Part shown: one piece after another, positions 2,071-63,119 of the stretch
Layout: each line of letters opens with the position of its first letter
How positions within the stretch are numbered: position 1 is the first letter of the stretch
Assembly: GCF_902713615.1 (NCBI RefSeq)
Contig: NC_052158.1
Location: 42,495,159-42,559,158 of the forward strand
Reading direction: 5' to 3'
Length of the DNA: 64,000 bases
Source: Scyliorhinus canicula
Taxonomy: Eukaryota
Program-made: the position numbers and the translations under genes
Notes under the pieces: model-generated
What the model was told of the DNA's origin: nothing
Databases searched by the model: none
What the model saw: the letters and a program-made list of their open reading frames with translations, nothing else

Positions 2071-2989
2071 TCCTCATGACCCGTCTGTCCGCACACCCCT
2101 AAAGCACCACCCTCACCCCCACATCCCCCGACTGCCCGCAGTCTAATCATGCGTCCCGTTTTGTGTCTTGAAGGACCTGCTGGTGATGGAGCAGGTTCAT
2201 CTGGCGTCTCTTGCCACCAGCCAGTGCCACAGCCTGAGACCCGGATGCTGAGCAGTGATGAATACACCAACACAGACAGGAGCCAGCAGCCCCCCTCCCG
2301 CAACCCCCCGGAGACCCAGGCCACCCCATACTCGGGTCCTGGAATGATATTGACTTTCTGTCATAGCTGCCCCCAACACCCCCCACCATCAGAGAGACAT
2401 TCATTTCGGTTGGGTAGTTTAGGTGAAGAGGCTCCTGGGGATAGATGCACCAGTACATCAGGTGGAGGTAGGAACTCCCAAGGGGATGGACAGTCGGAGG
2501 GCAAGCCGATCTCAGGGACTAGCTGTTCAGATGGATTTCAGGCTTCTGGAAAGGACAGTCCCATCGATTGTGGAGATGCAATTGCAGAGCCAGGGACTAC
2601 ATGAGGGGTTACCGGCGAATATTCAGCACCTGCAGGCGTAGGTGGAGGAGTCCAACCGTGTGCAGGAGCAGGAGGTGGTGCCGATGTATGCCACCCAGGA
2701 GGTGGTGTCACAGTGGAGGCATTGGGGCACTGGTTTTGGCTATGGATCAGCATGTCCAAGGCCTGGGTTTGACAATGTCTGCCTCCTGCCCACGGTAGCA
2801 CTGTCTACCATCCACTAGGGTGATCCCTGTATCCAAGCTGGCCATTTCATTACACAGTTCCATTGAATCCCTGGATCCCCAAGTGGCAGGGATGGGGACA
2901 ATAGGGGTCATTGTAGTGGGTCTCCACGTTGGTCTGTGGCCATCAACTCGGACTGCAGCAGATAACCCCTGTTGCCCAAAAGCCAACCG

Positions 2990-3800
2990 CAGCAGGGTCA
3001 GGAATTGTTGAGCGTGCCAGGATGAAGGCACAGTGCATGCTGCCCAGGTATCGGGCACAGACGTGCACGATGCGCATCTGATGGTCACACACCAGCTGCA
3101 CGTTCATCGAGTGGAACCTCTTTCAGTTTGTGAAGAGCGACCTGTCACCTGTAGGTGCTCATAGGGCGATATGCATTCCGTCAATCATCCCTTGGACCCT
3201 GGGCATGTCGACGGTGGTGGTGAACCGTGCTGTCTAGGGATCCTAGTGGGCACGGTCCACATTGAAATGGATGCATTATTCCGATCAGGCATACAACCGT
3301 GCAGATGCACCTGTGCACCGAGGTCTGTGAGATTCTGGACAGGTCCCCACTCAGCGCCTGGGAAGGACTCTGTGTAAATGTTCCGGGCGACGGGCACGAT
3401 GGCTATAAGGAGTGGGTGTCCTTCCCCATTGCCCCGCGGTGCCAGGTACGCCATCATCTGGCAGATATGTCTTTGATGGTATGTCTGGTGCGACAGGCCC
3501 TGGAATGACTGGCGCTGCCGGTACACACGAGGCCTCATGCGGCGCCTTCTTTGCACCGCCTCCTCCTCGACCTGTTGGGCAGCCGGCTCTCAATCCTCAG
3601 TGGCTGGCTCATGTTCCTCTGGGGCAGACACTGTTACTGCATCTTCCTCCTTCTTGGGCAACTCCTGCTTGTACCGCAGTGCATCATCCAGGGCCACGAG
3701 ACTAGGAGGAAGGTCACCATTGCTGGTTGAATTCCAATATCCATTGTCTGCAGGGGTGAAAGGCAGACATGTTAGCATGGTGCGTACCCCTGTGCCCAAT
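2990..3800 (-). pseudogene. Harbinger (HARBI1-like) transposase, truncated with stops
   Basis: RRRRMRPRVYRQR...HICQMMAYLAPRGNG..HPL, then MPRVQGMIDGMHIAL*AP...FTN*KRFHSMNVQLVCDHQMRIVHVCARYLGSMHCAFIL. The IDGxH and NxK.FHS.NVQ.VCD motifs are Harbinger DDE hallmarks. Confidence 0.8.
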
Positions 3801-4459
3801 CAGGTCCAATGGGTGAAATGTTGCCCCGGTTGGCACTGCAAACTCTGCCCCTGCATGTGCCTCCCCCAGGCCCCAGTGCTCGGTGCATGGGGGCCTCTGG
3901 CCCTGGTGCCCATCCCTGCTGCCAGGGGTACCATTGCCTGCTGCTGCCCATGCAACAGTACGCTCCATGGCCCCCATGCAATGCCCTCTCTGTGGGGTCT
4001 ACTGTGGGCATCGCCCTTGGGTGGGCCGTGTGATGCCTTGCCGGTGGGTGGCGGCCAGTTGGGGGTGGGGTGGTTTTCCGGAGGATGGCAGATGGGATGA
4101 GAGCTCGGGGGCATCCATATGGCCGGTGGCACTCGGCAGAATCAGGGGCCAGGGTGAGCGGTCAGTGGGGTGCGCAGCAAGATGGCTGCCTTCTGGCTGT
4201 GGCAATGGCAGTCCGTGACTGGGCATCACCCCAGTCCTGTGGGATGGGAGGCACCTGGCCCCATGCCCTGTTTTCCCGTCACCCCCGCCCTCCCCCTCCC
4301 CTGGCAGGATCCCCACACCTCAGCCATCCAGGCCAGTGTCAGGACCTGCAACCCACAGTAACACCACTCCGTCACCTACCTCCTCTCTCTCCTTCCCTCA
4401 TCAGCCACGGTTTCCCATTTTTCCAAGCACAAGTGAACCCTGCCATCGGGAATTTGCAC

Positions 4460-4705
4460 GAGTGGAGGCGAAGGGTATCCCTGAGGGAACAATCCCTGTG
4501 GAATGCTGACAGGGTGTGAGGAGAAGATATGTTTGGTGGTGGCATCATGCTGGAGTTGGTGGAGGATGATTCTTTGAATGTGGAGGCTGGTGGGGTATAA
4601 ATCTCATCGTATTTCCAGTTCTCTCCAACTTTGACAAAGTCATCAAGATGCGAAACGCCGTTCGCACGCCTTAGATGCTGTCAGGCCTGTTGAGATTACA
4701 TAGAG
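4460..4705 (-). mobile_element. Penelope-like element fragment plus degenerate terminal repeat
   Basis: The minus strand reads YPTSLHIQRIILHQLQHDATTKHIF..LSAFHRDCSLRDTL, the linker region of fish/shark Penelope RT-GIY-YIG proteins. Confidence 0.6.
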
Positions 4706-4706
4706 A

Positions 4707-5047
4707 ACATAGAACAGTACAGCACAGAACAGGCCCTTCGGCCCTCAATGTTGTGCCGAGCCATGATCACCCTACTCAAACCCACGTATCCACCCTATAC
4801 CCGTAACCCAACAACCCCCCCCCCCCTTAACCTTACTTTATAGGACACTACGGGCAATTTAGCATGGCCAATCCACCTAACCCGCACATCTTTGGACTGT
4901 GGGAGGAAACCGGAGCACCCGGAGGAAACCCACGCACACACGGGGAGGACGTGCAGACTCCGCACAGACAGTGACCCAGCCAGGAACCGAACCTGGGACC
5001 CTGGAGCTGTGAAGCATTTATGCTAACCACCATGCTACCGTGCTGCC
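4707..5047 (-). mobile_element. HE1-like V-SINE
   Basis: Reverse-complement tRNA head and V-domain, with an ACATAGAGAACATAGAAC tail repeat. Confidence 0.85.
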
Positions 5048-5952: not shown

Positions 5953-8900
5953 TTACAGGGGCACCCGGGCACAGCCCCTGCCCAAAACAGGGGATCCCAG
6001 GCACAGCCCCCACCCCAGTTACAGGGGGGCACAGGCACAGCCCCCACCCCAGTTACAGGGGGACCCCGGGCACAGCCCCCACCGCAGTTACAGGGGGGCA
6101 CGGGCACAGCCCCCGCCCCGTTACAGGGGTACCCGGGCACAGCCCCCGCCCCGTTACAGGGGAACCCCGGGCACAGCCCCCACCCAGTTAGAGGGGAACC
6201 CGGGCACAGCCCCCACCCCAGTTACAGGGGAACCCGGGCACAGCCCCCGCCCCAGTTACAGGGGAACCCGGGCACAGCCCCCGCCCCAGTTACAGGGGAA
6301 CCCGGGCACAGCCCCCACCCCAGTTACAGGGGGACCAGGGCACAGCCCCCGCCCCAGTTACAGGGGAGCCCTGGGCACAGCCCCCACCCCAGTTAGAGGG
6401 GAACCCCGGGCACAGCCCCCGCCCCAGTTACAGGAGAACCCCGGGCACAGCCCCCGCCCCAGTTACAGGGGAACCCCGGGCACAGCCCCCGCCCCAGTTA
6501 CAGGGGAACCCGGGCACAGCCCCCGCCCCAGTTACAGGGGAACCCCGGGCACAGCCCCCGCCCCAGTTACAGGGGAACCCGGGCACAGCCCCCGCCCCAG
6601 TTACAGGGGAACCCGGGCACAGCCCCCGCCCCAGTTACAGGGGAACCCGGGCACAGCCCCCGCCCCAGTTACAGGGGAACATGGGCACAGCCCCCACCCC
6701 AGTTACAGAGGTACCCGGGCACAGCCCCCGCCCCATTACAGGGGTACCCGGGCACAGGCCCCGCCCCGTTACAGGGGAACCCCGGGCACAGCCCCCACCC
6801 AGTTAGAGGGGAACCCCGGGCACAGCCCCCGCCCCATTTACAGGGGAACCCTGGCACAGCCCCCGCCCCAGTTACAGGGGAACCCCGGGCACAGCCCCCC
6901 GCCCCAGTTACAGGGGAACCCGGGCACAGACCCCGCCCCAGTTACAGGGGAACCCGGGCACAGCCCCCGCCACAGTTACAGGGGAACCCGGGCACAGCCC
7001 CCGCCACAGTTACAGGGGAACCCGGGCACTGCCCCCCCCCACCCCAGTTACAGGGGAACCCCGGGCACAGCCCCCGCCCCAGTTACAGGGGAACCCGGGC
7101 ACAGTCCCCGCCCCAGTTACAGGGGAACCCGGGCACAGCCCCCGCCCCAGTTACAGGGGAACCCGGGCACAGCCCTCGCCCCAGTTACAGGGGAATCCCG
7201 GGCACAGCCCACACCCCAGTTACAGGGGAACCCCGGGCACAGCCCCCACCCCAGTTACAGGGGAACCCCGGGCACAGACCCCACCCCAGTTAGGGGGGAC
7301 CCCGGGCACAGACCCCACCCCAGTTAGGGGGGAACCCGGGCACAGCCCCCACCCCAGTTAGGGGGGAACCCCGGGCACAGCCCCCACCCCAGTTACAGGG
7401 GAACCCTGGGCACAGCCCCCACCCCAGTTACAGGGGAACCCTGGGCACAGCCCCCACCCCAGTTACAGGGGAACCCGGGCACAGCCCCCACCCCCGGTTA
7501 CAGGGGAACCCGGGCACAGCCCCCACCCCAGTTACAGGGGAACCCGGGCACAGCCCCCGCCCCAGTTACAGAGGAACCCCGGGCACAGCCCCCACCCCAG
7601 TTACAGAGGAACCCCGGGCACTGCCCCCACCCCCCCGCCAAAGTTACAGGGGAACCCGGGCACTTCCCCCCCCCCCCCCCCCCCCGCCCCAGTTACAGGG
7701 GAACGCCAGGCACAGCCCCCACCCCAGTTACAGAGGAACCCCGGGCACACCCCCCGCCCCAGTTACAGGGGAACCCGGGCGCAGCCCCCGCCCCAGTTAC
7801 AGGGGAACCCCGGGCACTGCCCCCGCCCCAGTTACAGGGGAACCCCGGGCACAGCCCCCACCCCAGTTACAGGGGAACCCCGGGCACAGCCCCCACCCCA
7901 GTTACAGGGGAACCCCGGGCACAGCCCCCGCCCCAGTTACAGGGGAACCCCGAGCACAGCCCCCACCCCAGTTCCAGGGGAACCCGGGCACAGCCCCCGC
8001 CCCAGTTACAGGGGAACCCGGGCACAGCCCCCGCCCTAGTTACAGGGGAACCCGGGCACAGCCCCCGCCCCAGTTACAGGGGAACCCGGGCACAGCCCCG
8101 CCCCAGTTACAGGGGAACCCCGGGCACAGCCCCCCCCCAGTTACAGGGGAACCCGGGCACAGCCCCCGCCCCAGTTACAGGGGAACCCCGGGCACAGCCC
8201 CCCCCCAGTTACAGGGGAACCCGGGCACAGCCCCACCCCAGTTACAGGGGAACCCGGGCACAGCCCCCACCCCAGTTACAGGGGAACCCGGGCACAGACC
8301 CCACCCCAGTTACAGGGGAACCCGGGCACAGCCCCCACCCCCAGTTACAGGGGAACCCCGGGCACAGCCCCCGCCCCAGTTAGAGGGGAACCCGGGCACA
8401 GCCCCCACCCCAGTTAGAGGGGAACCCGGGCACAGCCCCCACCCCAGTTAGAGGGGAACCCCGGGCACAGCCCCCGCCCCAGTTACAGGGGAACCCGGGC
8501 ACAGCCCCCGCCCCAGTTACAGGGGAACCCCGGGCACAGCCCCCGCCCCAGTTACAGGGGGACCCGGGCACAGCCCCCACCCCAGTTACAGGGTGACCTG
8601 GGCACAGCCCCCGCCCCATTTACAGGGGAGCCCTGGGCACAGCCCCCGCCCCAGTTACAGGGGAACCCCGGGCACAGCCCCACCCAAGTTACAGGGGAGC
8701 CCCGGGCACAGCCCCCACCCAGTTACAGGGGAACCCTGGCACAGCCCCCACCCCAGTTACAGAGGAACCCGGGCACAGCCCCCACCCAGTTACAGGGGAA
8801 CCCCGGGCACAGCCCCCGCCCCAGTTACAGGGGAACCCCGGGCACAGCCCCCACCCAGTTACAGGGGAACCCCGGGCACAGCCCCCGCCCCAGTTACAGG

Positions 8901-10259
8901 GGAACCCCGGGCACAGCCCCCGCCCCAGTTACAGGGGAACCCGGGCACAGCCCCCACCCCAGTTACAGGGGAACCCGGGCACAGCCCCCCACCGCAGTTA
9001 CAAGGGAACCCCGGGCACAGCCCCCGCCCTAGTTACAGGGGAACCCCGGGCACAGCCCCCACCCAGTTAGAGGGGAACCCCGGGCACAGCCCCCGCCCCA
9101 GTTAGAGGGGAACCCCGGGCACAGCCCCCGCCCCAGTTACAGGGGAACCCAGGGCACAGCCCCCGCCCCAGTTACAGGGGAACCCCGGGCACAGCCCCCA
9201 CCCTAGTTACAGGGGAACCCCGGGCACAGCCCCACCCCAGTTACAGGGGAACCCGGGCACAGCCCCCACCCCAGTTACAGGGGAACCCGGGCACAGCCCC
9301 CACCCCCAGTTACAGGGGGTCAAGGGCACAGCCCCCACCCCGGTTACAGGGGGGCTCGGGCACAGCCCCCGCCCCATTATAGGGGTACCCGGGCACAGCC
9401 CCCGCCCCATTATAGGGGTACCCGGGCACAGCCCCCTCCCCGTTACAGGGGAACCCCGGGAACAGCCCCGAACCAGTTAGAGGGGAACCCCGGGCACAGC
9501 CCCCGCCCCAGTTACAGGGGAACCAGGGCACAGCCCCCGCCCCAGTTACAGGGGAACCCGGCACAGCCCCCACCCAGTACCAGGGGAACCACGGGCACAG
9601 CCCCCACCCCAGTTACAGGGGAATCCCGGGCACAGCCCCCACCCCAGTTACAGGGGAACCCCGGGCACAGCCCCCACCCCAGTTACAGGGGGACCCGGGC
9701 ACAGCCCCCACCCCAGTTACAGGGGAATCCCGGGCACAGCCCCCGCCCCAGTTACAGGGGAATCCCGGGCACAGCCCCCACCCCCAGTTACAGGGGAACC
9801 CGGGCACAGCCCCTACCCCAGTTACAGGGGAACCCGGGCACAGCCCCGCCCAGTTAGCAGGGGCACCCCGGGCACAGCCCCCGCCCCAGTTACAGGGGAA
9901 CCCCGGGCAACAGCCCCCGCCCCAGTTACAGGGAACCCCGGGCACAGCCCCCGCCCAGTTACAAGGGGAACCCGGGCACAGCCCCAGCCCCAGTTACAGG
10001 GGAACCCTGGGCACAGCCCCCGCCCCCAGTTACAGGGGAACCCTGGGCACAGCCCCCGCCCCAGTTACAGGGGAACCCCGGGCACAGCCCCCGCCCTAGT
10101 TACAGGGGAACCCCGGGCACAGCCCCCGCCCCAGTTACAGGGGAACCCGGGCACAGCCCCCGCCCCAGTTACAGGGGAACCCCGGGCACAGCCCCCGCCC
10201 TAGTTACAGGGGAACCCCGGGCACAGCCCCCGCCCCAGTTACAGGGGAACCCGGGCACG
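5953..10259 (+). repeat. GC-rich minisatellite, ~34-35-bp unit GGGGAACCC(C)GGGCACAGCCCCCGCCCCAGTTACA, ~125 copies (MHC IIB intron 2)
   Basis: Direct tandem repetition is visible throughout. Copy number is estimated as length/unit. Confidence 0.97.
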
Positions 10260-10322
10260 GCCCCCGGTCGGGGCATAGGGCCGGTGATGGGAAGTCCCCC
10301 CCCCCCGATCCCCCGCTCTCAC

Positions 10323-10583
10323 CTCTCCGGGGCAGCACGTCACTTTCATCGATGCCAATGTTAGTCTGACACATGGCGATCGCTTGTTGGTAGGTCGATT
10401 CCCCGCTCTCTTTAGTCCATCTCTCCGCATCGCTTTTCGACCAGTCCTTCACCGCGATGTACTTCTTCTGGTTAAAGTCGTAATACGAGATCAGCTCATG
10501 ATCATAGACATCGTAGTCAATATAGGTCCAGGTCCCGGAGCTGTTAAACTCACATCCAGCTATGCTGCTGTAGGTGTGAGCCC
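10323..10583 (-). CDS. mhc2b: MHC class II beta chain exon 2 (beta-1 peptide-binding domain)
   Basis: 261-nt phase 1-1 exon bounded by CTCTCTCTCACAG| and |GTGAG. It encodes (G)AHTYSSIAGCEFNSSGTWTYIDYDVYDHELISYYDFNQKKYIAVKDWSKSDAERWTKESGESTYQQAIAMCQTNIGIDESDVLPRR, with a Cys pair 61 apart, an N-glycan site NSS after the first Cys, Y(D)xE..xYD, W, and a C-x-x-N...RR end like class II beta CRHNYGVxESFTVQRR. Confidence 0.9.
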
Positions 10584-10805
10584 CTGTGAGAGAGAGAGAC
10601 ACACACAGAGTTACTGCCGGGAGACAGACAGCACCGACCCCCTGACATCCCGGGGGGGGGGGGGGGGGGGAGGGTCTCCTAACCACCGGGAGGTCTGATA
10701 ATCCACGGGGAACACCAGGAATTATCCTTCACTAACATGGGACCCGACAGACAGGAGTGGAAGGGCCGAGGACCGAGGGGAAAGGTTTGGAGCCGGGGGG
10801 GCGGA

Positions 10806-11490
10806 GGCTGTGCCTGGGGTTCCCCTGTAACTGGGGCGGGGGCTGTGCCCGGGGTTCCCCTGTAACTGGGGCGGGGGCTGTGCCCGGGGTTCCCCTGTAA
10901 CTGGGGCGGGGGCTGTGCCCGGGGTTCCCCTGTAACTGGGGCGGGGGCTGTGCCCGGGTTCCCCTGTAACTGGGGCGGGGGCTGTGCCCGGGTTCCCCTG
11001 TAACTGGGGTGGGGGCTGTGCCCAGGGTTCCCCTGTAACTGGGGTGGGGGCTGTGCCCGGGGTTCCCCTCTAACTGGGGCCGAGGCTGTGCCCGGGGTTC
11101 CCCTGTAACTGGGGCGGGGGCTGTGCCCGGGGTTCCCCTCTAACTGGGGCGGGGGCTGTGCCCGGGGTTCCCCTGTAACTGGGGCGGGGGCTGTGCCCGG
11201 GCCCCCTTGTAACTGGGGTGGGGGCTGTGCCCGGGTTCCCCTGTAACTGGGGCGGGGGCTGTGCCCGGGTTCCCCTGTAACTGGGGCGGGGGCTGTGCCC
11301 GGGTTCCCCTGTAACTGGGGCGGGGGCTGTGCCCGGGGTTCCCCTGTAACTGGGGTGGGGGCTGTGCCCGGGGTTCCCCTGTAACTAGGGCGGGGGCTGT
11401 GCCCGGGTTCCCCTGTAACTGCGGCGGGGGCTGTGCCCGGGTTCCCCTGTAACTGGGGTGGGGGGGCTAAGCCCAGGGTCCCCCTCTAAC
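10806..11490 (-). repeat. Same ~34-bp minisatellite in inverted orientation, ~20 copies (MHC IIB intron 1)
   Basis: The unit CTGTGCCCGGGGTTCCCCTGTAACTGGGGCGGGGG is the reverse complement of the 5953-10259 unit. Confidence 0.95.
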
Positions 11491-11655
11491 GGGGCTGTGA
11501 GAACCGAGTTACAAACTGCAAACTTGTCAGGGAGAGAGAGAGTGAACACAAATGTCAGCTGGAACTCTATAACTAATTGCAACTTCATTTTGCTCCACCG
11601 CCTAGCCCTATAACAGAGAGCACGATCAAAGAGCTATTGATGTGGGGTTATCTCG

Positions 11656-18573: not shown

Positions 18574-18729
18574 CGCCCACACGTGCGGGATGATTGGTGT
18601 TGGGAACACAGGCTGCAACTTGGCAATGTCCTCAATATTGGAACACACACCAGGAGGGGAATTAATCAGGCAGGGTAATTTATATTAATCAGAGGGTGAA
18701 CAGGAACCAGCGCCTACACTAAACTTCAA

Positions 18730-20342
18730 TACCAAGCCTGGGATCCAGAACCGTCTGATAGTCCAGTCCAACTCCCAGCCTGGGTCAGAACTGTCTGATT
18801 TAGTCCATTCCCACTTCCTGCCGGGATCCCGAATCGTCTGATTTAGTCCAGTCCAACTCCCAGCCTGGGTCAGAACTGTATGAATTAGTCCAGACCAATA
18901 CCGAGCCTGGGATCCAGAACCGTCTGATAGTCCAGTCCAACTCCCAGCCTGGGATCCCGAACCGTCTGATTTAGTCCAGACCAATACTGAGCCTGGGTCA
19001 GAACTGTCTGATTTAGTCCAGTCCAACTCCCAGCCTGGGTCAGAATTGTCTGATTTAGTCCAGACTAATACCGAGCCTGGGATCCAGAACCGTCTGATAG
19101 TCCAGTCCAACTCCCAGCCTGGGATCCCGAACCGTCTGATAGTCCAGTCCAACTCCCAGCCTGGGTCAGAACTGTCTGATTTAGTCCAGACCAATACCGA
19201 GCCTGGGATCCAGAACCGTCTGATAGTCCAGTCCAACTCCCAGCCTGGGATCCCGAACCGTCTGAATTAGTCCATTCCCACTTCCTGCCGGGATCCCGAA
19301 CCGTCTGATAGTCCAGTCCAACTCCCAGCCTGGGTCAGAACTGTCTGATTTAGTCCATTCCCACTTCCTGCCGGGATCCCGAATCGTCTGATTTAGTCCA
19401 GTCCAACTCCCAGCCTGGGTCAGAACTGTCTGATTTAGTCCAGTCCAACTCCCAGCCTGGGTCAGAATTGTCTGATTTAGTCCAGACTAATACCGAGCCT
19501 GGGATCCAGAACCGTCTGATAGTCCAGTCCAACTCCCAGCCTGGGATCCCAAACCGTCTGATAGTCCAGTCCAACTCCCAGCCTGGGTCAGAACTGTCTG
19601 ATTTAGTCCAGACCAATACCGAGCCTGGGATCCAGAACCGTCTGATAGTCCAGTCCAACTCCCAGCCTGGGATCCCGAACCGTCTGAATTAGTCCATTCC
19701 CACTTCCTGCCGGGATCCCGAACCGTCTGATAGTCCAGTCCAACTCCCAGCCTGGGTCAGAACTGTCTGATTTAGTCCATTCCCACTTCCTGCCGGGATC
19801 CCGAATCGTCTGATTTAGTCCAGTCCAACTCCCAGCCTGGGTCAGAACTGTCTGATTTAGTCCAGACCAATACCGAGCCTGGGATCCAGAACCGTCTGAT
19901 AGTCCAGTCCAACTCCCAGCCTGGGTCAGAACTGTCTGATTTAGTCTAGACCAATACCGAGCCTGGGATCCAGAACCGTCTGATAGTCCAGTCCAACTCC
20001 CAGCCTGGGTCAGAACTGTCTGATTTAGTCCAGACCAATACTGAGCCTGGGATCCAGAACCGTCTGATAGTCCAGTCCAACTCCCAGCCTGGGTCAGAAC
20101 TGTCTGATTTAGTCCATTCCCACTTCCTGCCGGGATCCCGAATCGTCTGATTTAGTCCAGTCCAACTGCCAGCCTGGGTCAGAACTGCCTGATTTAGTCC
20201 AGACCAATATCTAACCTGGGATCCAGAACCGTCTGATAGTCCATTCCCACTCCCAGCCTGGGATCCCGAACTGTCTGATTTAGTCCATTCCTACTCCAGC
20301 CTGGGATCCCGAACCGTCTGATTTAGTCCAGTCCAACAGCCA
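18730..20342 (+). repeat. ~42-44-bp satellite (CCCAGCCTGGGATCCAGAACCGTCTGATTTAGTCCAGTCCAACT), left part, with ~422-bp higher-order repeat
   Basis: Direct tandem units. Identical blocks recur 422 bp apart (e.g. 19041 vs 19463). Confidence 0.93.
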
Positions 20343-23700: not shown

Positions 23701-24831
23701 TGGGTGGCTCAAAGGCCAATGCCCACAGTTTTACAATGTTCGAGCCGATCTGGCAATCGTTGATGGGGTTCTCCTGAAGCTAGACCGCATCGTGATCCTG
23801 CACAGCATGCACCAGCTGGCCCTAGAGCAGCTGCACGAGAGCCAGCTAGGCGTTGAAAAATGTCGCCGCAGGGCCAGGGAAGCTGTGTATTGGCCGGGAA
23901 TCAACGACGACATTACCAATGCGGTACTCAACTGCCCCACCTGCCAGCGTTTTCAACCCGCCCAACCACGGGAGACCCTGATGCCCCATGAGTTGGTCAC
24001 ATCGTCCTGGACCAAGGTGGGCATTGACCTGTTCCCACGCATTGGGTAGGGACTATGCATTAATTATTGATTACTTCGCAAACTACCCGGAGGTTATCAG
24101 GTTGCACGACCTCACTTTATCCTCTGTCAGTCGGGCGTGCAAAGAGAAATTTGCCCAGCATGGCATCTCGCTCACAGTGATGTCGGACAATGGCCCCTGC
24201 TTCACAAGCCAGGAATGGGCCAGCTTCGCCCGCAGTACAACTTTGCAGACATCACATCCAGTCCCCTGTACCCTCAGTCCAATGGCAAGGTGGAAAAGGG
24301 GGTTCATATAGTCAATAGGCTGCTCTGCAAGGCTGCCGATGCCGGATCTGACTTCCATCTCGCTTTGTTGGCCTATCTCTGCGCCCCGCTCTCCACTGGG
24401 CTGTCGCCCTCACAGTTGTTAATGAATCGCACCCTGAGGACAATGGTGCCGTCTATTCACACCCCGAATCTTCATCATGTCCCCTTGCTTCACAGGTTGC
24501 AGACGTCTCAGACGCAGCAAAAGGCGACACACGGCTCACGTGCTGCTGATCTCCCCGACATCCAGCCGAAAGTATTCATCTCCTGGATGGTGGCTGGTCT
24601 GGAACTGCTGTTGTCCTTAGGCAGGTGGCACCCCGCTCCTTCCTGGTCCAGTTACCGGACGGATCCATTCTGCGCCGCAATCGGCCGTGCCCTTCGCCTT
24701 GTTCCACAGTCGTCACGGGATCCTCCGAGCAGCTCCTCTGCTGACCCTGCCATGGGCTGTGCAGAGCTTCCGGTCACTCTGTCTCTTCCTGACTGTGTTG
24801 CAACCCACCCAGCCCCTGACCTGGCGGCTAT
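20794..24831 (+). pseudogene. Ty3/Gypsy gag-pol (Mag-like), multiply frameshifted; the 3' tip resumes at 58496 after the ERV array
   Basis: Gag WKSFKQRF...RDQIVFG with two CCHC-like knuckles (CGNCGSAH..HC; C..YGKLGHY..LC), protease FRLDIG, RT LRICIDPKDLN...RMPFGI...YVDD, RNase H TDAS/EKECL/TDH/ADALS, and integrase HESQLG..C..C, DLF, SDNGP, QSNGKVE. The C-terminus PLRRSTRVRRPPQTLNL* lies at ~58500-58556. Confidence 0.92.
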
Positions 24832-25843
24832 TGTAGCCACCTAAGATGGACACTGGGCTAACAAAATGGAGAACTGCTAAGACTGTAGGGAGAAAACAGT
24901 TTTAGCCAGGACAAGCAGTCTGCAAAGGCTAATTAGCATTCTGCACGTAACAAAACTAGTTTATGGCCAGGTGGAAGATCTCAACCAAAGGTGTAAATAG
25001 CAAAACGCTTTGCATAGTAATGAGGCAATCCAGATCTGGGCACACACAATAGCAACATTTGGGTTTGAATGGATACTTTGAGTGGACGCCCAGACGAAAC
25101 GGCACCAGAAGTATCCATCACAAAAGACCCTAGAGACCGCCCCACCCATCGAGAAGAGACCCTCAGATTGGGGGATTTGTAAGACATCGATTGGGAAATG
25201 ACCCAATCGATACATGGCAGGTAAAGGCCCGCCTGGAAAAGGCACGGACATTGGGGGCCCTATAAAGGTAGACCCCGCACATGGTTCTGTCTGTTTTTGT
25301 GCTCCGGCTTGGACTGCTGTTTTGACTCCGGCCCAGATCTGCTGTTGTAGCCTGACTCTAACTCCAGCCGTTGATCCTGTCTTCCATCACCAGCCGTTGA
25401 GCACCAGCCATCGTTCAGTAAGTGCCAAAACGACGCTCGCTACGTGAACCCGGCATTACTTATACATTATTCAACTATTAGTGAACAGAAGGTGCAGCCC
25501 AGAAAGGAACAAAGGCCTTGTCCCCTGACCTTGCTGGTTCCTACATAGATAAGTATTTAGTCGTTTAATAGTAGTAATAAGTATTAGTCTTTAGCGTATG
25601 CATGTGTATTTATTATATTTGTATAATAAATATTAATCGTTTGAACTTACTAATCGGTGTATAGTTTTATTACTTTGAACCTGACCTTGAAATACTTGTG
25701 AGGTGTCCAGATACGGCACCTGGCGACTCCGAGCTGAAAATACACACACAGAGCTGTAGCAGTGTTAAGCACACGGCCTTTAAACGGAGGCGTCTTAATA
25801 CACTCCAATAAACGCATAATACACTCAAGTAAAACGTGCAACA
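24832..25843 (+). mobile_element. Retrovirus-like provirus copy 1, 5' LTR (1012 bp)
   Basis: TGTAGCC...GTGCAACA with CCAAT at 25203, TATAAA at 25261 and AATAAA at 25625 and 25807. Preceded by CTAT, which is duplicated at 58492-58495. PBS-like TGGCGACATCCTGACGGGAC follows at ~25848; the primer tRNA is not resolved. Confidence 0.93.
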
Positions 25844-26159
25844 TTTAGTGGCGACATCCTGACGGGACACGGTTACAAGTGGCACCCCCACTCCGTCGAG
25901 GACCCTGAAATTTGAATCAGAAATCCAAGTAAAGAAAAAGGAAAGAAATCACAAGTATTCAAGGTGTTCAAACGAATAAACGTAATTCGGAAGTGTGTTT
26001 TGTGCATGCGTAGTAACAGGGTTGTAAGGAAAACCTGAAAGCATTTTTGTTGCGACAAACTTTCGGTAGTTTTGTGAACGGAACATAGCGTAAGCCTTAC
26101 CCGTTTCGTGAGACATAACCTCAACACCCCCTGTTCCAAATTTAAGTGAGTCAAAGAAA

Positions 26160-27905
26160 ATGGCCATGCAGTCAATGGAACGCCTCATGAACCCAGAACG
26201 GTTTGTGGTCGCAGCGACCAGCAGTAGCCGAGTAGGTCAGTGTCCCGTGTGGGAGCTGGAACTCTGCAAATATCTGCAAGGAAAGGGATGGCCCCTTTGG
26301 AAAGAGTTCTGTTTGAATGAGGAGACAGGTCCCGGAAGTATAGGACATACTTGGTGGGAGAACCTCTCTCAAATTCATAAGAAAACCCTTAGTAAAGCAC
26401 GCAAGCCGATGGCAATCGTATCCTGTTTGGCACAATTGCGAGGCACAGAGGAGGTCGTTCAGACGCTCCGGGCAGAATTAGAAGAGAGAAATCGAATGAG
26501 TAAAGTGGATGTCAGGGACATCGAGAAAGAAAATATGGATCTTAGAGGGAAGTTGGCAGAGAAAGGTAGAGAGGTGGATGATGCCAAGAGGGCACATCAG
26601 TCTTTTCTAGCCCATCTCAGCAGTTCCCAGACCCAGTACGAAAAGGCCTATCAGGACGTGCAACGTGCCGTCCTGATAAGAGAAGAATCAGAGAAGCAGG
26701 TAGAGGCTTTGCAGAGGCAATGCTCTGACCTAAAGGCAGCTTTAAGAGCACTCCATGCTGCCACCACAGAACAAAGACAGAGTACAGTAGACCATGCAAA
26801 ATGCAGGAAGCAGATTGCGGAGCTGCAATCGCTGCTTTCAGTGCAGAATGGGTTCCAAAGCACCTTTGGAACGCAGTTAGATGAGGAGAATGCCCCAGAC
26901 TGGAAAGAGTTAAGTGAGACAGCGCAGCGTTATGTTCAGGGAACATGTGCGCCAGCAGCGCAGCAGAAAAGACAAGCACCCCAACCCCCCACAGATCAGA
27001 TAGTTACCGCACCAATGAATCCAGTCACCACCCAAAGGAAAGCGACCACAGAAGGCGCACCCGATATCACTTACACCACCCCCTTAACTGTAACCCAACT
27101 CAGGGACGCGTGTGAGAAGATCACTCTGTTTCTCCCCACCGCAGACCCCCACCAATTTTTCGCAAAAGTAAAGCAATAGGCAACCATGTACGGCCTGGAC
27201 GAGAGAGAGCAGGTTAAGCTCACGGTCCTGAGCTTAGACCAATCGGTTGTAGCAGCCCTCCCCGACCCACAGAACGTTGGCGGAGGCACCCTAGAGGAAA
27301 TGCACACCTCCATTTTAGATGCCATAGGGTATAACCGAGGTGACCCAGTCGAAGGACTTAACAAGTGCCGACAAAAGAAAACCGAGCACCCCACAGCATT
27401 TGCAGGAAGGCTGTGGATCCATTTTAACGCAGTTTTCGGCGATTTAAATAGAGCCCATTTGAACCGAGAAAATATGGTTAAATGGACGCGCACCATAATT
27501 TCCCATGCCACAGATGCAGGACAGAGTGCTTGCAACAGCTATGACCCCTCAGAGGAGGCCCATAATGAGAAGTGGGTCCTGAAAAGATTGTCCCGCGCTT
27601 GGGAGCAATCAGTTCAGGGCAGAGGCAAAGTAAAGTCCCCAGAAGAGGCTCAGGCTGCAGCGGACATTCAGGCAGTGAGAGCGCACCAAAACCCCGCGTG
27701 GGTGAATGAAGGAAAGAACAGCCCTCCACAGAAGTCGCAGGAATGCTACAACTGTGGCCAGTTAGGACATTGGGCTAAGGAATGTAATGCACCCCAAAGA
27801 TCACAGAGAGGCCAGCAGACAGGCACTCTGAATAGGAATAAAGCCAAACCAATCCATAGTATAGGGATCCAGTCAGGACAGACCAATGTGGACGGAACGG
27901 ACTGA
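26160..27905 (+). CDS. gag: Provirus gag (coiled-coil N-half, CA-like region, one CCHC knuckle); in-frame TAG at 27177-27179
   Basis: ORFs 26160-27179 and 27186-27905 are in the same frame. CYNCGQLGHWAKEC knuckle. Donor-like AA|GTGAGT at 26146 just upstream of the ATG. Confidence 0.85.
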
Positions 27906-30900
27906 CGGTGTTCGGGCTCCCCCACTTGGGTCTGTGACACTCTTTGGGATCAATCCGGAAGACCGGTAGTCACAGCTAAGGTTAGAGGGAAGCCCATAGA
28001 GTTACTTTGGGACACAGGAGGGTCCCGCACCACGATTAATTCCACAACCACGGCACAGGCAGACACGTGGCCGACCACCTCCACCATCACACTTAGCGGT
28101 TTCACAGGACACTCGCAGCAGGGACACATTACAGCACCCGTAGCAATCCAGCTAGGGAACATCTCCACCAGACACCCAGTCGTATTAGTAAATCTTCCCC
28201 GGACAGCAGAACACATCCTAGGGATAGATTTTATGAACGCTCATAGCTTGTCATTCGACCCAGTTAACCAGTGTGTCTGGCGAATGGCGAGATCGGACAG
28301 AGCACCCGCTACTCTCACAGTAGGAGAGTACGCTAACCGGATTAGCGCAGTCGGAGACTATTCATTTGACCTGACTGCACTAAACACGGACAGACAAGTA
28401 AAGGCAGTATTAAACAAACATAGGACAGCATTTGCCAGTCACCGGCACGACTGTGGCAGAATGACTGGACAAATTCACGTTACCGGACCTGACCCCCGAC
28501 CACAGAAACAATACAGATTTCCCCTAGAAGCAGAGGGAGAAATAGAGAAGGTAATAGGTAGCTTATTAGAGCAAGGTGTGCTTAGAACAGTAGCCTCAAC
28601 CAATAATGCCCCTATTTGGCCAGTGAGAAAGCCCGACGGATCATGGCGTCTGACCATTGATTATCGGGAGCTCAACAAAGTAACCCCAGCAGTAGCCCCC
28701 ACGGTAGCAACAAGTCCCGAGACCATGCTCAAACAGGGACTCAACTCCAAATATTTCACGGTATTGGACATTAGCAACGGCTTCTGGTCAATCCCATTGG
28801 CAAAGACGTGCCAGTACAAAGTTGCCTTCACCTTCAAAGCACAACAGTATACCTGGACATGCCTTCCACAAGGATTCCACAATTCTCCCTCCATTTTCCA
28901 CCGACAGCTGGCGAATGGTTTAGAAAAATGTTCCCGCCCCGAATGTCTGGTACAGTATGTAGACGACCTACTACTGCAGACAGACACAAAGGCAGAGCAC
29001 ATTACGCTTCTGGCCGAGCTCCTGGAACTTTTAACCTCAATTGGATGTAAAGTTAACCCAAGAAAGGCCCAGATTTTGGAACACAAAGTGATGTATTTGG
29101 GTACAGTCATCACGCACGGCAAACGCGAGATCGAATTCAAAAGAATTGATTCGATTGTCAAATTGCCCCTTCCCCAGAATGTTTCAGCCCTCCGGTCGTT
29201 CTTAGGACTGGTTGGTTATTGTCGGAACCACATTGACGGATTCGCGACAAAGGCAGCCCCACTCTCAGACCTCCTTAAGAAAGGAGCCCCCTGGGAATGG
29301 CTTCCGCAGCATACAGAGGCTGTGGAGGAGTTAAAGAGAGCCCTTAGCGCAGCACCCGCGCTACAAGTCCCAGACCACCTTTCCCCCTATGCAATAGAGG
29401 TAGCGAGCACAGATCTGACCCTCTCGGCCGTGTTACTTCAGGAACGGCACGAGCAGCTAAGACCAGTGGATTATGCCTCCCGACTTTTAGACCCAGTAGA
29501 ACAGAGATTTTCAGCCTGCGAGAGGCACCTCCTTGCAGTTTTCTGGGCAGTTCAGTACTTCTCGTACATTACCGGACTCAACCCCATCACCATTTTGACC
29601 GAGCACACCCCCACACAGTTACTCCTAGACGGTCGACTGAAGGACGGTTCAGTTAGCCAGATTAGGGCAGCTGGGTGGACATTACTTTTACAAGGACGCG
29701 ACATTACGGTAAAACGGACCCGGACACACACATTTTTAGCCGACAACCTCCAATACCCAGGACAGCCCCATGAATGTGAAATTGTAGCACCCCTGCACAA
29801 CACAGGACCCTTCATAGCGAAGACACCCCCCAGGAAGATAGGGAACCCAAGACAAAGCCCCCAACACACAGACACGTGTGGCCCACTACGGATATACGTG
29901 GACGGTTCATCCACGGTTTTAGAAGGTGAGCGTATCACGGGATGCGGCATATATGTCGAGGACGCGCAGGGTCGCGCACTCGAAGAAATAGCGTTAAAAT
30001 TGGCAGGTCACTTAGGCGCGCAGGCAGCAGAGCTCGCGGCCATGGCTTATATAGTGGACCACCCCGATTCTTTCCCCAGCCCGGCGGACATATATTCGGA
30101 CAGTCGAAATGTCTGCAATAGTTTGACAGATTTTCTACCCCTGTGGAGGACACGAGGTTTTGTCTCCGCAGACGGGAAACCCCTTCCATCAGCCCCTTTA
30201 CTCCGCCACATTTTAGATAAAGCGAAGGACAGAACCTTCGGCATTATAAAAGTCAAGCCACCATAGGTCATCCCCCCCTGGGAATGTAAAAGCCGACGCA
30301 CTGGCTAAGGCAGGTTCCAGGCGAGGACACTTGTGGACACCCCCAGCTAGCGCACCAGCTAGCGCCCCTGTGAGCGCAGTTCAAGTCTCACAGACCGATA
30401 TCAAGGATTTAGATGAAGCACAGAAGCAGGATGAGGATCTCAGGGAGATTTTTAAAGGCAACTTTGTGCCTCAGTTTGACAAATTTAGACACGCACTGAC
30501 CACACATGAGGGTGTGATCATCAAGGACCAGCTTTATGTGGTCCCGCAGCAGGACAGGAATCAAATGATTGCTTTGTTCCATGACGGGCATGGACATCAA
30601 GGAATCGACACGACCACGAGGCACCTCAGGCAGCTCTGTTGGTGGCCTAACCTAAGGACAGATGTAACTCACTACATCGAGAATTGCCTTATTTGCGCCC
30701 AGAATAACCCGGAGAGGTATTCTAAAAAGGCACAGCTTCGGCATACTCGACCAGTTAATGGCCCCTGGACAAACTTCCAGATCGACTTTATAGGACCTTG
30801 TAGGAATGGCTTTAAATACGTTCTGGTGGTAATTGATACCCTTACCAAATGGGTAGAGGCATTCCCCTCAAGAACAAATACAGCAAAGACAGCTGCAAAA

Positions 30901-32130
30901 ATCCTGACCCACCACATCTTCACGAGATGGGGTTTACCCAGAAGTATAGATTCGGACCAGGGATCTCACTTCACAGGACGTGTCATGAAGAACGTCCTGA
31001 CCATATTCGGCATCAAACAAAACTTTCATATTGCGTATCACCCACAGTCCAGCGGGATTGTAGAGCGCATGAATCGGACCCTAAAATCCACACTTAGAAA
31101 AATGGTTCAAGAAAACAACTCAACATGGGATTCAGTGCTCCCATTTGCACTCATGTTTATCAGAAATACAGTTTCAACTTCCACAGGATACACACCACAC
31201 ACACTCATGACCGGACGCCCTATGAAAGGTACAGAATTCCTTTTAGGACTGGACATGACTAGCCCCGAAGTGACGGCCCTCACACACGAAAAGACAGTTA
31301 AAGACCTGGTTGAGACTGTGAGGTCTGCACAGATCGCAGCCGCAGTTCAACTAAGGAAACGGCGTAGACAAAGCACAGCATGCTTTAATAAGACCGTACA
31401 CCCCACAGAATTCCAGGTTGGGCAACAGGTAATGCTATCTGTATATAACCCCAGCAGTTTTTTGGCACCAAAATATTCCGGCCCATATTCAATTTCGGAC
31501 AAAATTAGCCCCTCAGTTTACAGGATAAAATACCCCAACGGAAAGACCGCGTGGTTCCATATTAACCAGTTAAAGGCATATGGAACACAGTCTAACCATG
31601 CACACCATGTCCTGCTAGACGCAGCAGAACACCTCGCCCCGCCCACCAGAGACACGTTTCCACCATCCCACTCACAGACCAGTTCTTCATCGGACTCGCC
31701 CACGACTCCGCCCACTGACCACAACAGACCACGCCCCGAAACGCCCACAAGCTGCCGCAGCAGAGACAGCGAAACAGACACTGACTCTGAGGACAGCCAC
31801 AGCACACCACTCTACAGCCCACATTGCAGTGACTATGACCCCGACTCCAGTGACCCCATGGAAGTCACTTACATTAAAAACCCAGACCCACCACCCGACC
31901 CCGACTACACCGACAATACCCATTCACTTTTAGACCCAACACTCTGGCACAGGGACAATTCGTACCGACTTGTCCGCAACGACGAAAGTGACCCCCGGTC
32001 ACATAATTCAAAAATTTCATGCCTGATCCACACAAGGGTGTGGGATCCGGGAGAGCAGGACGACACGGTGTCTGAATCCCGATACGGCAACCCCTTTGTG
32101 ACCCTGTTCACAGAGGCAGAGAAAAAGTGA
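27906..32130 (+). CDS. pol: Provirus pol: PR-RT-tether-RNase H-IN, in frame with gag after TGA; one frameshift at ~30260
   Basis: PR LLWDTGG; RT PVRKPDGSWRLTIDYRELN, LDISNGFW, LPQGFHNSP, YVDD; tether YASRLLDPVEQRFSACERHLLAV; RNase H YVDGS/AELAA/YSDS/KADALA; IN HDGH..C..C, IDFIG, SDQGSHF, SGIVERMNRTLK, GPY. Confidence 0.93.
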
Positions 32131-33087: not shown

Positions 33088-33432
33088 ATGATGGAAGCCT
33101 ACCTATTACTGTTAAATGTTATATTTGTATGTGTGGAAGCGAGTCACGTTTCCCCCACAACCCCCGCCGTCAATGTTTCCCTCACACCAACTTCCCCGTG
33201 CTCAGCTCTGATCAGTGAAGTTCAGACCTGGTGCACAAAATTTATGACATGGTACTCCATGTCATACGTGATTGAATCACTGCTAGTGATTGCAATCCTC
33301 TGCATAATCGTACAGACCCTCAGGTTGAGGAAGTGGAAGAGGAGAGCCTCCCGTTCCTGCCCCTCAACCATCTATGGAGTTCAATCCCCTATTTTCGGTT
33401 TCCACCAATCCCCCCAGCCCCTCAATGAATAA
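33088..33432 (+). CDS. 114-aa predicted single-pass type I membrane protein at the env position (unknown function)
   Basis: Hydrophobic leader ending VEA|SH, S/T/P-rich stalk with NVS sequon, C38-X10-C49, aromatic FMTWYSMSY, TM YVIESLLVIAILCIIVQTL, and RLRKWKRRASR. Kozak-like ACCATGATGG. AATAAA at the stop. The identical protein is encoded in copy 3. Confidence 0.7.
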   Translation: MMEAYLLLLNVIFVCVEASHVSPTTPAVNVSLTPTSPCSALISEVQTWCTKFMTWYSMSYVIESLLVIAILCIIVQTLRLRKWKRRASRSCPSTIYGVQSPIFGFHQSPQPLNE

Positions 33433-33792
33433 AGCACTATGTGAATAAAAGATACCCATGTATTATATTGTCCTGGACTCGACTGCCGAGTCAGGAAGCG
33501 ATATGTAATGTGGTATGAATGAATAAGGTTTAGACTGTAATAAAATGTTTAAGGTAAGATAAGGATAGTTGTGATAGGTAGAGGTTCCCGGTTTTGGTAA
33601 TGCATGTCCCCTTTGACATAGGGCCAAGTAGAGATGTCAGGTAAAAAAATTTTCTTCCCATAGTCAAGGACAGAATAGACGCCCAGGAACTTGCCGAGGT
33701 CAGGGAACACAAAGAAGGCACCCAGAAGCACTCGAAGCAACGTGCATAGGTGATCCTTCACAATTTTTATTGTGAGGATCACAAGGAGGGAA

Positions 33793-34270
33793 TGTAGCCA
33801 CCTAAGATGGACACTGGGCTAACAAAATGGAGAACTGCTAAGACTGTAGGGAGAAAACAGTTTTAGCAAGGACAAGCAGTCTGCAAAGGCTAATTAGCAT
33901 TCTGCACGTAGCAAAACTAGTTTATGGCCAGGTGGAAGATCTCAACCAAAGGTGTAAATAGCAAAACGCTTTGCATATTAATGAGGCAATCCAGATCTGG
34001 GCACACACAATAGAAACATTTGAGTTTGAATGGATACTTTGAGTGGACGCCCAGACGAAACGGCACCAGAAGTATCCATCACAAAAGACCCTAGAGACCG
34101 CCCCACCCATCGAGAAGAGACCCTCAGATTGGGGGATTTGTAAGACATCGATTGGGAAATAACCCAATCGATACATGGCAGGTAAAGGCCCGCCCCGAAA
34201 AGGCACGGACATTGGGGGCCCTATAAAGGTAGACCCCGCACATGGTTCTGTCTGTTTTTGTGCTCCGGCT
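33793..34270 (+). mobile_element. Provirus copy 1 truncated 3' LTR (U3 + TATA + 43 nt)
   Basis: PPT AAGGAGGGAA at 33783-33792 precedes TGTAGCC. The LTR breaks at ...GCTCCGGCT and joins Gypsy RT sequence equivalent to 22417. Confidence 0.92.
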
Positions 34271-55100: not shown

Positions 55101-58100
55101 TTCCAGGTTGGGCACAGGTAATGCTATCTGTATATAACCCCAGCAGTTTTTTGGCACCAAAATATTCCGGCCCATATTCAATTTCGGACAAAATTAGCCC
55201 CTCAGTTTACAGGATAAAATACCCCAACGGAAAAGACCGCGTGGTTCCCATATTAACCAGTTAAAGGCATATGGAACACAGTCTAACCATGCACACCATG
55301 TCCTGCTAGACGCAGCAGAACACCTCGCCCCGCCCACCAGAGACACGTTCCACCATCCCACTCACAGACCAGTTCTTCATCGGACTCGCCCACGACTCCG
55401 CCCACTGACCACAACAGACCACGCCCCGAAACGCCCACAAGCTGCCGCAGCAGAGACAGCGAAACAGACACTGACTCTGAGGACAGCCACAGCACACCAC
55501 TCTACAGCCCACATTGCAGTGGACTATGACCCCGACTCCAGTGACCCCATGGAAGTCACTTACATTAAAAACCCAGACCCACCACCCGACCCCGACTACA
55601 CCGACAATACCCATCACTTTTAGACCCAACACTCTGGCACAGGGACAATTCGTACCGACTTGTCCGCAACGACGAAAGTGACCCCCGGTCACATAATTCA
55701 AAAATTTCATGCCTGATCCACACAAGGGTGTGGGATCCGGGAGAGCAGGACGACACGGTGTCTGAATCCCGATACGGCAACCCCTTTGTGACCCTGTTCA
55801 CAGAGGCAGAGAAAAAGTGAGGTGTCCAGATGATGTAAAATAGGAACCGCTTGAGGGAAGCGATGTCCTTTCTGATGGAACCTGCACGTATGTTTTGTTT
55901 GTCAGTTTATGTTTGTTTGTATTTAATGTTATTGGTTCAGTTGGAGGCTGGACACCTTCTTTTCAGCTGAAAAGATTGTGACCACCTCGCACGCACTTTA
56001 GTTTGTCCGCCGATACCTTTGAGAACTTCGGTTCCCAACCCAATGGTTTGATTGGAAATCTTTTCAGCTGTAAGGCTTGTGACCGCCTTACACGGACACT
56101 AAGTTTCTCTGCTGAAATCTCTGAGAACTTCAGTTCACTGTTTTCAGATGTTGGAGCATCTTGGCTCCTCCCTTGTTTTTAGGTTGCCCCTCTATTCGGC
56201 GAATAGAGGCTGCAAATCCACGGTAAACACATTCTTGCCCGTTCATTCCAGGTTACTCAGGCAGTGGACAATCGGCACTGAGGACCCGCCCTGTCTGAGA
56301 ACCCACTTTGGTCAGCCAAGCTCGGGTATGGCACCGCACGCCCTACCCGGGGATCCCATTCAAATCGTACCCGTAGCGGCCCATACGCAACCCATTCGAC
56401 CTTTTCTTTCAAATTTATTTTCATTTTTCGTTAGGCAGCCCTTAGGCCGCCATCCCACATGCTATTTACATCCAGGAACATTCGGATGGTAAATTAGCAA
56501 AGCCTGCGAGACGGCTCGCAGGAGGAAAGTTGTTAGGGGTATTGTGTTCATAAATTCGCTTTTGAAAAAAAAATGAGGGGAGTCACAGGGTGTGACTTGG
56601 CCAGTCATTTTAATGGGTCAATTGGAATTAGAGGACAGATACACTAACAAGTACGGATATTAAACTGTGTATTGACAGATACTGTGCTTGATCCCATAGC
56701 TTTCAAAGGACGAAAGAGGGTTCACAGCAAGGATCGGCCATACAGGAGGAAGAGAAAGAGAATGAAGAGAAGACCATGATGGAAGCCTACCTATTACTGT
56801 TAAATGTTATATTTGTATGTGTGGAAGCGAGTCACGTTTCCCCCACAACCCCCGCCGTCAATGTTTCCCTCACACCAACTTCCCCGTGCTCAGCTCTGAT
56901 CAGTGAAGTTCAGACCTGGTGCACAAAATTTATGACATGGTACTCCATGTCATACGTGATTGAATCACTGCTAGTGATTGCAATCCTCTGCATAATCGTA
57001 CAGACCCTCAGGTTGAGGAAGTGGAAGAGGAGAGCCTCCCGTTCCTGCCCCTCAACCATCTATGGAGTTCAATCCCCTATTTTCGGTTTCCACCAATCCC
57101 CCCAGCCCCTCAATGAATAAAGCACTGTGTGAATAAAAGATACCCATGTATTATATTGTCCTGGACTCGACTGCCGAGTCAGGAAGCGATATGTAATGTG
57201 GTATGAATGAATAAGGTTTAGACTGTAATAAAATGTTTAAGGTAAGATAAGGATAGTTGTGATAGGTAGAGGTTCCCGGTTTTGGTAATGCATGTCCCCT
57301 TTGACATAGGGCCAAGTAGAGATGTCAGGTAAAAAAATTTTCTTCCCATAGTCAAGGACAGAATAGACGCCCAGGAACTTGCCGAGGTCAGGGAACACAA
57401 AGAAGGCACCCAGAAGCACTCGAAGCAACGTGCATAGGTGATCCTTCACAATTTTTATTGTGAGGATCACAAGGAGGGAATGTAGCCACCTAAGATGGAC
57501 ACTGGGCTAACAAAATGGAGAACTGCTAAGACTGTAGGGAGAAAACAGTTTTAGCAAGGACAAGCAGTCTGCAAAGGCTAATTAGCATTCTGCACGTAGC
57601 AAAACTAGTTTATGGCCAGGTGGAAGATCTCAACCAAAGGTGTAAATAGCAAAACGCTTTGCATAGTAATGAGGCAATCCAGATCTGGGCACACACAATA
57701 GCAACATTTGGTTTTGAATAGATACTTTGAGTGGACGCCCAGACGAAACGGCACCAGAAGTATCCATCACAAAAGACCCTAGAGACCGCCCCACCCATCG
57801 AGAAGAGACCCTCAGATTGGGGGATTTGTAAGACATCGATTGGGAAATAACCCAATCGATACATGGCAGGTAAAGGCCCGCCCCGAAAAGGCACGGACAT
57901 TGGGGGCCCTATAAAGGTAGACCCCGCATATGGTTCTGTCTGTTTTTGTGCTCCGGCTTGGACTGCTGTTTTGACTTCGACCCAGATCTGCTGTTGTAGC
58001 CTGACTCCGACTCCGGCCGTTGATCCTGTCTTCCATCACCAGCCGTTGAGCACCAGCCATCGTTCAGTAAGTGCCAAAACGACGCTCGCTACGTGAACCC

Positions 58101-58491: not shown

Positions 58492-58818
58492 CTATCGACC
58501 CTCCCTTGAGGCGGTCAACCAGGGTTCGTCGCCCACCTCAGACACTGAATTTATGAACTTTGCAAATTTATGGACTCTCTGAGATGTTTCCCTCCTTGTT
58601 AAATCGTTTTCTATTGGTTTGTATATAGCACTGATCTTGTTCAATTTGTTGCATACTACCTATCTGCACCAGGCACCTTCCCTTGTATACAGCTTTGTTT
58701 TCCTGTATATAGATCTGTACATATGTCATCGCACCTCACACGTAGTTAGGAACATTCTTCACACACCCACACTATTTATTGTCACACATTCACATCAAAT
58801 TTTTTTTAAAAGGGGGGA

Positions 58819-63070: not shown

Positions 63071-63119
63071 AGTGAAGCAATTGTGCTATCCACAATGCTA
63101 CCGTGCTGCCCTTAAGAAA

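Follow-up and report, generated by a model that had tools for sequence, protein, structure and literature searches.

Does a shark provirus whose Pol carries two RNase H domains belong to an early relative of the retroviruses, or is it a retrovirus of a familiar kind? The question is raised by a stretch of 64,000 nucleotides of the Scyliorhinus canicula genome (NCBI RefSeq assembly GCF_902713615.1, contig NC_052158.1, positions 42,495,159 to 42,559,158 of the forward strand), hereafter the window. It contains a long terminal repeat (LTR) element composed of a 1012-bp 5′ LTR, gag, pol, a short 3′ open reading frame (ORF) and a 3′ LTR. The initial annotation had suggested a chondrichthyan lokiretrovirus or a new branch at the base of the retroviruses. 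We consider it reasonably likely (probability about 70%) that the element is a broken member of an endogenous retrovirus (ERV) family that is young, has many copies, lacks env and lies among the canonical retroviruses, with relatives in frogs, the coelacanth and probably the elephant shark, and that it likely spread in the germ line in the manner of a retrotransposon. All features described are on the plus strand, and published work is cited by PMC number.

Pfam searches revealed, in order, a protease, a reverse transcriptase (RT), a tether, a second RNase H and an integrase (IN). The protease is a retropepsin (27906–28472) with a DTG motif whose Asp is at 28011. It is followed by the RT (28473–29276, YVDD at 28956–28967), a tether that is a Gypsy-type RNase H (29277–29750), the second RNase H (29880–30330) and the integrase (30538–32130), which combines an H2C2 domain, an rve core and an SH3 domain with GPY motif and ends in a Pro/Ser/Asp-rich tail. 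The profile scan of both RNase H domains that had been called for gave 79 bits for RT_RNaseH_2 and 62 bits for RT_RNaseH in the tether, then 35 bits for RNase_H, with rve, H2C2 and SH3 following. The substituted catalytic residues reported for the first domain were confirmed: catalytic positions 1–3 of the tether are V, H and E in the window and in all 20 other copies of the family that were compared, and the fourth position, an Asp (ADNL) that had escaped notice, is retained in all 20. The neighbouring Gypsy element, whose RNase H is 32% identical to the tether over 116 amino acids, indeed keeps all four catalytic motifs (TDAS, EKE, TDH and ADAL). The second RNase H has D, E, D and D, the first three in 20 of 20 other copies; the description of four acidic residues stands with the amendment that, in the window copy, KADALA lies in the next frame after a frameshift near 30255.

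The same two profiles, RT_RNaseH and RT_RNaseH_2, gave 60 and 72 bits with walleye dermal sarcoma virus (WDSV), 50 and 64 bits with a gammaretrovirus, 74–79 and 90–100 bits with lokiretroviruses, and about 130 and about 120 bits with true Gypsy elements. Judged by profile scores, the tether is about as Gypsy-like as that of WDSV, so the double RNase H is an ordinary retroviral layout. A tether with a second RNase H is what canonical retroviruses have; a dual RNase H is also expected of a lokiretrovirus, but it is common to all retroviruses. The element does not show the combination that defines Ty3/Gypsy, a single active Gypsy RNase H with an RT among the Metaviridae.

For phylogenetic analysis, 416 RT segments were thinned to 226 for a fast tree, and 57 hand-picked rows were used for an RT+tether tree (LG+C20, Gypsy outgroup). 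An IN tree was made from 54 rows by a quick method, 5 wanted rows being dropped. Snakehead retrovirus (SnRV), WDSV, foamy viruses and class II references were identified by motif or published alignment; lokiretrovirus references were rows with an FGY[AS]NSP motif that resemble consensus sequences from the PMC7947760 supplement, and the labels of two class III-like rows are based on motif only. The foamy rows were mammalian only, and Odin elements, fish foamy-like ERVs (FLERVs), CoeEFV, CmiFLERV/XtrFLERV, mammalian ERV-L, lentiviruses and deltaretroviruses were not included. In the RT+tether tree lokiretroviruses (100/99) were sister to the canonical retroviruses (100/99), and the window element was within the latter, grouped with frog, coelacanth and other elements (79/98). 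Its union with lokiretroviruses was rejected in the approximately unbiased test (p-AU 0.0009), and lokiretroviruses were again separate in the IN tree (support 100). Union with SnRV was absent from the best tree but was not rejected (p-AU 0.318). The top homologs were from frogs (50–57%), the coelacanth (53%) and a turtle (44%), and the closest named fragment was from Mustelus asterias (66% over 104 amino acids). Searches for related loci outside the genome gave one distant match in metagenomes and none in viral contigs. We agree with the initial annotation that Pol is of retroviral type and lies close to the base of the retroviral tree, where resolution is poor, that the host is a shark, and that the 3′ gene is a different one.

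The gene model of one frog relative (P0001) continues after the integrase with a hydrophobic stretch and, by eye, an apparent immunoglobulin V-type domain, which is either a captured gene or a fused model.

The search of the shark's own genome gave 150 scored RT matches, every one of them 96–100% identical. A 28-nt pattern at the gag/pol junction had 828 exact matches, against 0 for the control, a lower bound that puts the family at no fewer than 828 copies. The 20 copies that were fetched in rank order by RT similarity, after the window's own matches, all have the same layout, without env. A 4-bp target site duplication was found by direct reading in 11 of 19 copies, as well as in the window copy. 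Kimura two-parameter LTR divergence has a median of 0.0071 (range 0.001–0.039, n = 19; one copy is without a 5′ LTR, one of the values is partial, and the outlier of 0.039 comes from an LTR shared with a tandem provirus). At shark rates assumed from PMC10699275 and PMC4422223, the family is roughly 7–16 million years old, an age that assembly error would inflate. Every gene of the family is under purifying selection, with pairwise dN/dS (the pairs are not independent) of 0.07–0.15 in gag and the pol domains, 0.40 in the integrase tail and 0.29 in the small ORF. The window copy itself is broken by a premature gag stop at 27177, which the 19 other copies read at this point do not have, and by the frameshift near 30255 at the RNase H end. 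Copies L025, L029, L037, L053, L057 and L059, among those fetched, form a subfamily recognizable by a 9-bp duplication where the LTR starts.

The gag gene (26160–27905) encodes a long predicted helix (coiled coil) in its N-terminal half, a capsid-like region and one CCHC knuckle (27744–27785; zf-CCHC, 33 bits), the last as initially annotated. The single-sequence fold of the N-terminal half was poor (pLDDT 53.5) and only its long helix was used. No homologs of a 45-amino-acid Gag query were found, the query being too short for this to carry weight. Gag had been taken to be fused to Pol. The two share a frame but are split by a TGA at 27903–27905, present in all 20 other copies and followed by CGG in 19 of them. 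UGA-CGG (27903–27908) is a type II readthrough context (PMC13517186), and readthrough at this junction would yield Gag-Pol. UGA gag/pol junctions are known in other aquatic ERVs. The element XtERV-S (PMC8278194), a non-class I/II ERV, shares the in-frame TGA between gag and pol, and therefore UGA readthrough is not new for ERVs; XtERV-S differs from the window family in being ERV-L-related and in having a dUTPase, a class I env and a tRNA-Ser primer.

The primer-binding site (25849–25868) is imperfect in the window copy, as is the commonest version in the family, while some copies have an exact 18-nt match to tRNA-Arg(UCU); a tRNA-Arg(TCT) gene of the genome matches these variants perfectly at its 3′ end. 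Six loci were fetched from 24 pattern matches, and four proved to be family copies (L061, L063, L065 and L066) that carry about 44 nt of tRNA-Arg(UCU) in spliced form with its CCA, reaching as far as the anticodon, the extension lying at about position 1500. Because spliced tRNA has been captured in these proviruses, we conclude that tRNA-Arg(UCU) primes the family.

The family is transcribed, though the window copy need not be. In raw reads, the expression evidence used here, three RNA runs from two studies covered 30 of 30 bins of the element, with 1245 to 4721 reads placed at 90% out of 13–15 million read. Reads from one strand were about ten-fold more abundant in the two bulk runs, and coverage was higher in the 3′ part. 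Only 59–143 reads were 99% alike.

The env gene expected of a retrovirus is lacking in all 20 fetched copies of the family. The genome has 78 class I env matches, and at none of the 19 env loci examined does pol of this family adjoin env; any pol detected next to env was epsilon-like and 25–42% identical to the family's Pol. A mononegavirus-like fusion-type env was likewise absent from the element copies. Such epsilon-like ERVs with class I env, distinct from this family, are common in the genome (the 78 matches), and one is nested inside a family copy (L109).

Between pol and the 3′ LTR lies a 114-codon orphan ORF (33088–33432) with two hydrophobic stretches and a basic tail. It is open at 113–114 amino acids in 18 of the 19 copies read, one further copy being unmatched by the script. 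Variation among copies indicates that it is conserved and under purifying selection: the variant ratio is 0.37 (p = 4e-5), compared with 0.93 and 1.31 in its other frames. A homolog of the ORF, 50% identical over the C-terminal half, is present in a diverged subfamily whose Pol is about 70% identical. The product is predicted to be a type I membrane microprotein, with a signal peptide, a short ectodomain, one transmembrane helix and the basic tail. All its Pfam matches were under the cut-off, and the best Atlas match scored 0.88, with low recognition and no family; homologs were sought within the shark's own genome. We rejected the idea of a cut-down env, the ORF showing no similarity to two env ORFs of the same genome or to SnRV env (best E 0.047). 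Our best guess is that it may have an accessory role at the cell surface or in the secretory pathway, helping particle exit or blunting host defence.

The nearest described relative, judged by eye, is CmiERV lineage I of the elephant shark (Han 2015). The comparison revealed the same charged, repeat-rich Gag N-terminus, a single CCHC knuckle, a TGA in frame ahead of the protease, a tether with LEVA and CERHLLA motifs and a GP[FY] integrase tail. In a hand count of identities over two RT blocks, CmiERV-I scored 65/84, frog P0001 67/84 and SnRV 58/84. CmiERV-I carries an env of class I type and, with an LTR divergence of 0.033, is old, while the window family has the 114-codon membrane ORF instead of env and consists of hundreds of young copies with a tRNA-Arg primer; the CmiERV-I primer-binding site is of the tRNA-Ser type. 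The initial annotation had proposed to give up a new branch if the RT nested within a described shark ERV or Gypsy family that had the same organisation. CmiERV lineage I (PMC4422223), with the same Gag, UGA and tether arrangement by eye, largely supplies such a family. It is SnRV-related and clusters with SnRV in that report.

SnRV shares with the window element one CCHC knuckle, an in-frame gag stop, the GPY tail and YVDD, the feature set of SnRV-like or clade Huo elements, and its primer-binding site is tRNA-Arg. It differs in having env and a UAG stop, and it is not the sister in the best tree. The SnRV Pol also has an extra stretch between RNase H and integrase, absent from the window element, with two HxT/S motifs, a pair typical of 2H phosphoesterases. 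SnRV-like or clade III ERVs have been described in sharks, coelacanth and amphibians (PMC4977317, PMC6001957, PMC11089739), and there are unclassified ERVs, related to SnRV, that have a zinc finger and a GPY/F motif (PMC4299795). The 5-bp target site duplication and absence of zinc finger and GPF/Y that characterize ERV4 (PMC4299795) are not those of the window element. The family is best filed with the shark, frog and coelacanth ERVs loosely called SnRV-like, as an env-less variant. What is distinctive is the combination of at least 828 copies, young LTRs, tRNA-Arg(UCU) priming, no env and a conserved membrane ORF. No description of the family was found in the open literature, the repeat libraries Repbase and Dfam and subscription journals being outside the scope of this search. 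A link to NYNRIN was hinted at by database names; none of six terms sought in PMC9447858 occurred there.

An unlikely, but not negligible, alternative is that a foamy-like ERV of the shark and frog group (CmiFLERV, XtrFLERV), hitherto known only from pol fragments, is here seen at full length for the first time. Foamy virus Pol is the best match in PDB, the top matches include Xenopus tropicalis elements, frog and shark FLERVs form a cluster in which the ghostshark is known from pol only (PMC5512871), and union with foamy viruses was not rejected (p-AU 0.227). Foamy viruses and fish FLERVs (PMC5210030, PMC5512871) share the YVDD RT with similar N-terminal motifs. All RT motifs quoted in the initial annotation are present; those it described as foamy-like are not diagnostic, LDISNGFW and KPDGSWR occurring in SnRV too. 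The union is absent from the best tree, mammalian foamy viruses lie elsewhere in both the RT+tether and IN trees, and RT identity is 38% to foamy viruses versus 48% to SnRV. Foamy viruses lack a Gag Cys-His box, express Pol from its own start, use tRNA-Lys (or Asn), have a GGGTG junction between polypurine tract and LTR and carry a Spuma A9 protease, whereas the window element has a CCHC knuckle, an in-frame TGA, a tRNA-Arg primer, no GGGTG and a retropepsin. An exact-match search of the genome with a fish FLERV-type RT pattern, a weak test, gave no match. Identity with ERV-Spuma.0-Sca (PMC10699275) was rejected, that element having another LTR, other gene sizes and an annotated env; none of three 16-mers from the window was found in its supplement.

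Somewhat less probable is that the family belongs to a slow-evolving lineage that split off first within the canonical retroviruses and perhaps never possessed an env of its own. Its short branches at a basal polytomy, a basal grade adjoining lokiretroviruses in the IN tree and a position sister to all others that was not rejected (p-AU 0.139) agree with this, and the capsid region resembles retrotransposon Gag in Atlas, which is a lead only. The env of CmiERV-I may be a capture, because its immunosuppressive-domain stretch is, by eye on the CmiERV-I side, near-identical to that of epsilon-like ERVs of the S. canicula genome. That position was recovered for the element alone in 11 of 1000 bootstrap trees and with the turtle group in 68, the nearest described relative (CmiERV-I) has env, and ERVs have often lost env and then risen in copy number. 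A bolder version, about equally doubtful, would make the shark/frog/coelacanth clade a primitively env-less stem lineage, an Odin-like intermediate on the retrovirus side, with the elephant-shark env as a later class I capture and the 114-amino-acid protein as an independent route to the cell surface. Odin elements likewise have a dual RNase H and no env, and further env-less dual-RNase H elements have been predicted (PMC9040795). That the element is a chondrichthyan lokiretrovirus or Odin-like (Odin being outside our sampling) is very improbable: it shares the tether with second RNase H and a Bik-1-like coiled-coil region upstream of the capsid, but lokiretroviruses form their own RT clade, which the AU test and both trees keep apart from it, their FGY[AS]NSP motif and paramyxovirus-like env are missing from it, and they were found in 0 of 6 chondrichthyan genomes (PMC7947760).

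Several observations weigh against an env-less family among canonical retroviruses as we describe it. The base of the retroviral tree is poorly resolved, the shark/frog/coelacanth group reaches only 79/98, and in the IN tree it is a basal grade, not one clade. In the best tree the element is not grouped with SnRV, which makes "SnRV-like" a loose label, and its tether and IN are about 40% and 38% identical to those of lokiretroviruses versus 25% and 28% for SnRV. The comparison with CmiERV-I was by eye only, outside any tree. Because the 20 fetched copies are those closest in RT, relatives with env may have gone unnoticed. Six non-coding control frames gave variant ratios of 0.47–1.55, one of them low (0.47, p = 0.017). 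No significant stimulatory RNA structure, such as a readthrough stem-loop, was seen 3′ of the UGA (z −0.67). Most RNA reads are 90–95% alike and may reflect passive transcription of other copies, and no GT-AG splice joint or spliced RNA for the small ORF was seen in the three RNA runs.

The life cycle of an env-less ERV family of this kind may be pictured as follows. Full-length RNA from the 5′ LTR would be translated into Gag and, by occasional readthrough of UGA-CGG, Gag-Pol. The CCHC knuckle would package this RNA, for which tRNA-Arg(UCU) would serve as primer. Cleavage would be the work of the second RNase H while the tether would be structural, a division of labour established for retroviruses, and the integrase would insert new copies. 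Spread would be intracellular, because the family has no env and a high copy number.

The significance is modest, the double RNase H being ordinary. The family adds young, abundant and full-length copies to a short-branched group at the retroviral base that has so far been described from a few old copies, and it helps to test root placement and the frequency of env loss or capture. A conserved membrane microprotein in the place of env is easy to test, and spliced tRNA-Arg written into proviruses is a direct record of primer use.

The element is inserted at the 3′ end of a Gypsy integrase gene with a 4-bp duplication, CTAT, read directly at 24828–24831 and, for its partner, at 58492–58495. The 5′ LTR (24832–25843) begins with TG, ends with CA and has TATAAA at 25261 and AATAAA at 25625 and 25807. 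A polypurine tract (33783–33792) precedes the 3′ LTR (33793–34268), which is shortened by a tandem-duplication junction. Three tandem 11.85-kb units (22415–57958), each a Gypsy fragment with a provirus, are 98.9–99.7% alike and meet at an LTR-to-Gypsy junction with 2-bp microhomology; the last LTR of the array (57481–58491) is complete. Because the differences among units are mainly 1-bp indels in base runs (24/28 and 71/77), which resemble long-read error, the triplication is either very recent or an assembly artefact. Elsewhere in the window, minisatellite arrays with units of 34–35, 42 and 44 bp occupy 6000–11500, 18700–20340 and 59200–63100, and the first of these arrays contains an inverted block.

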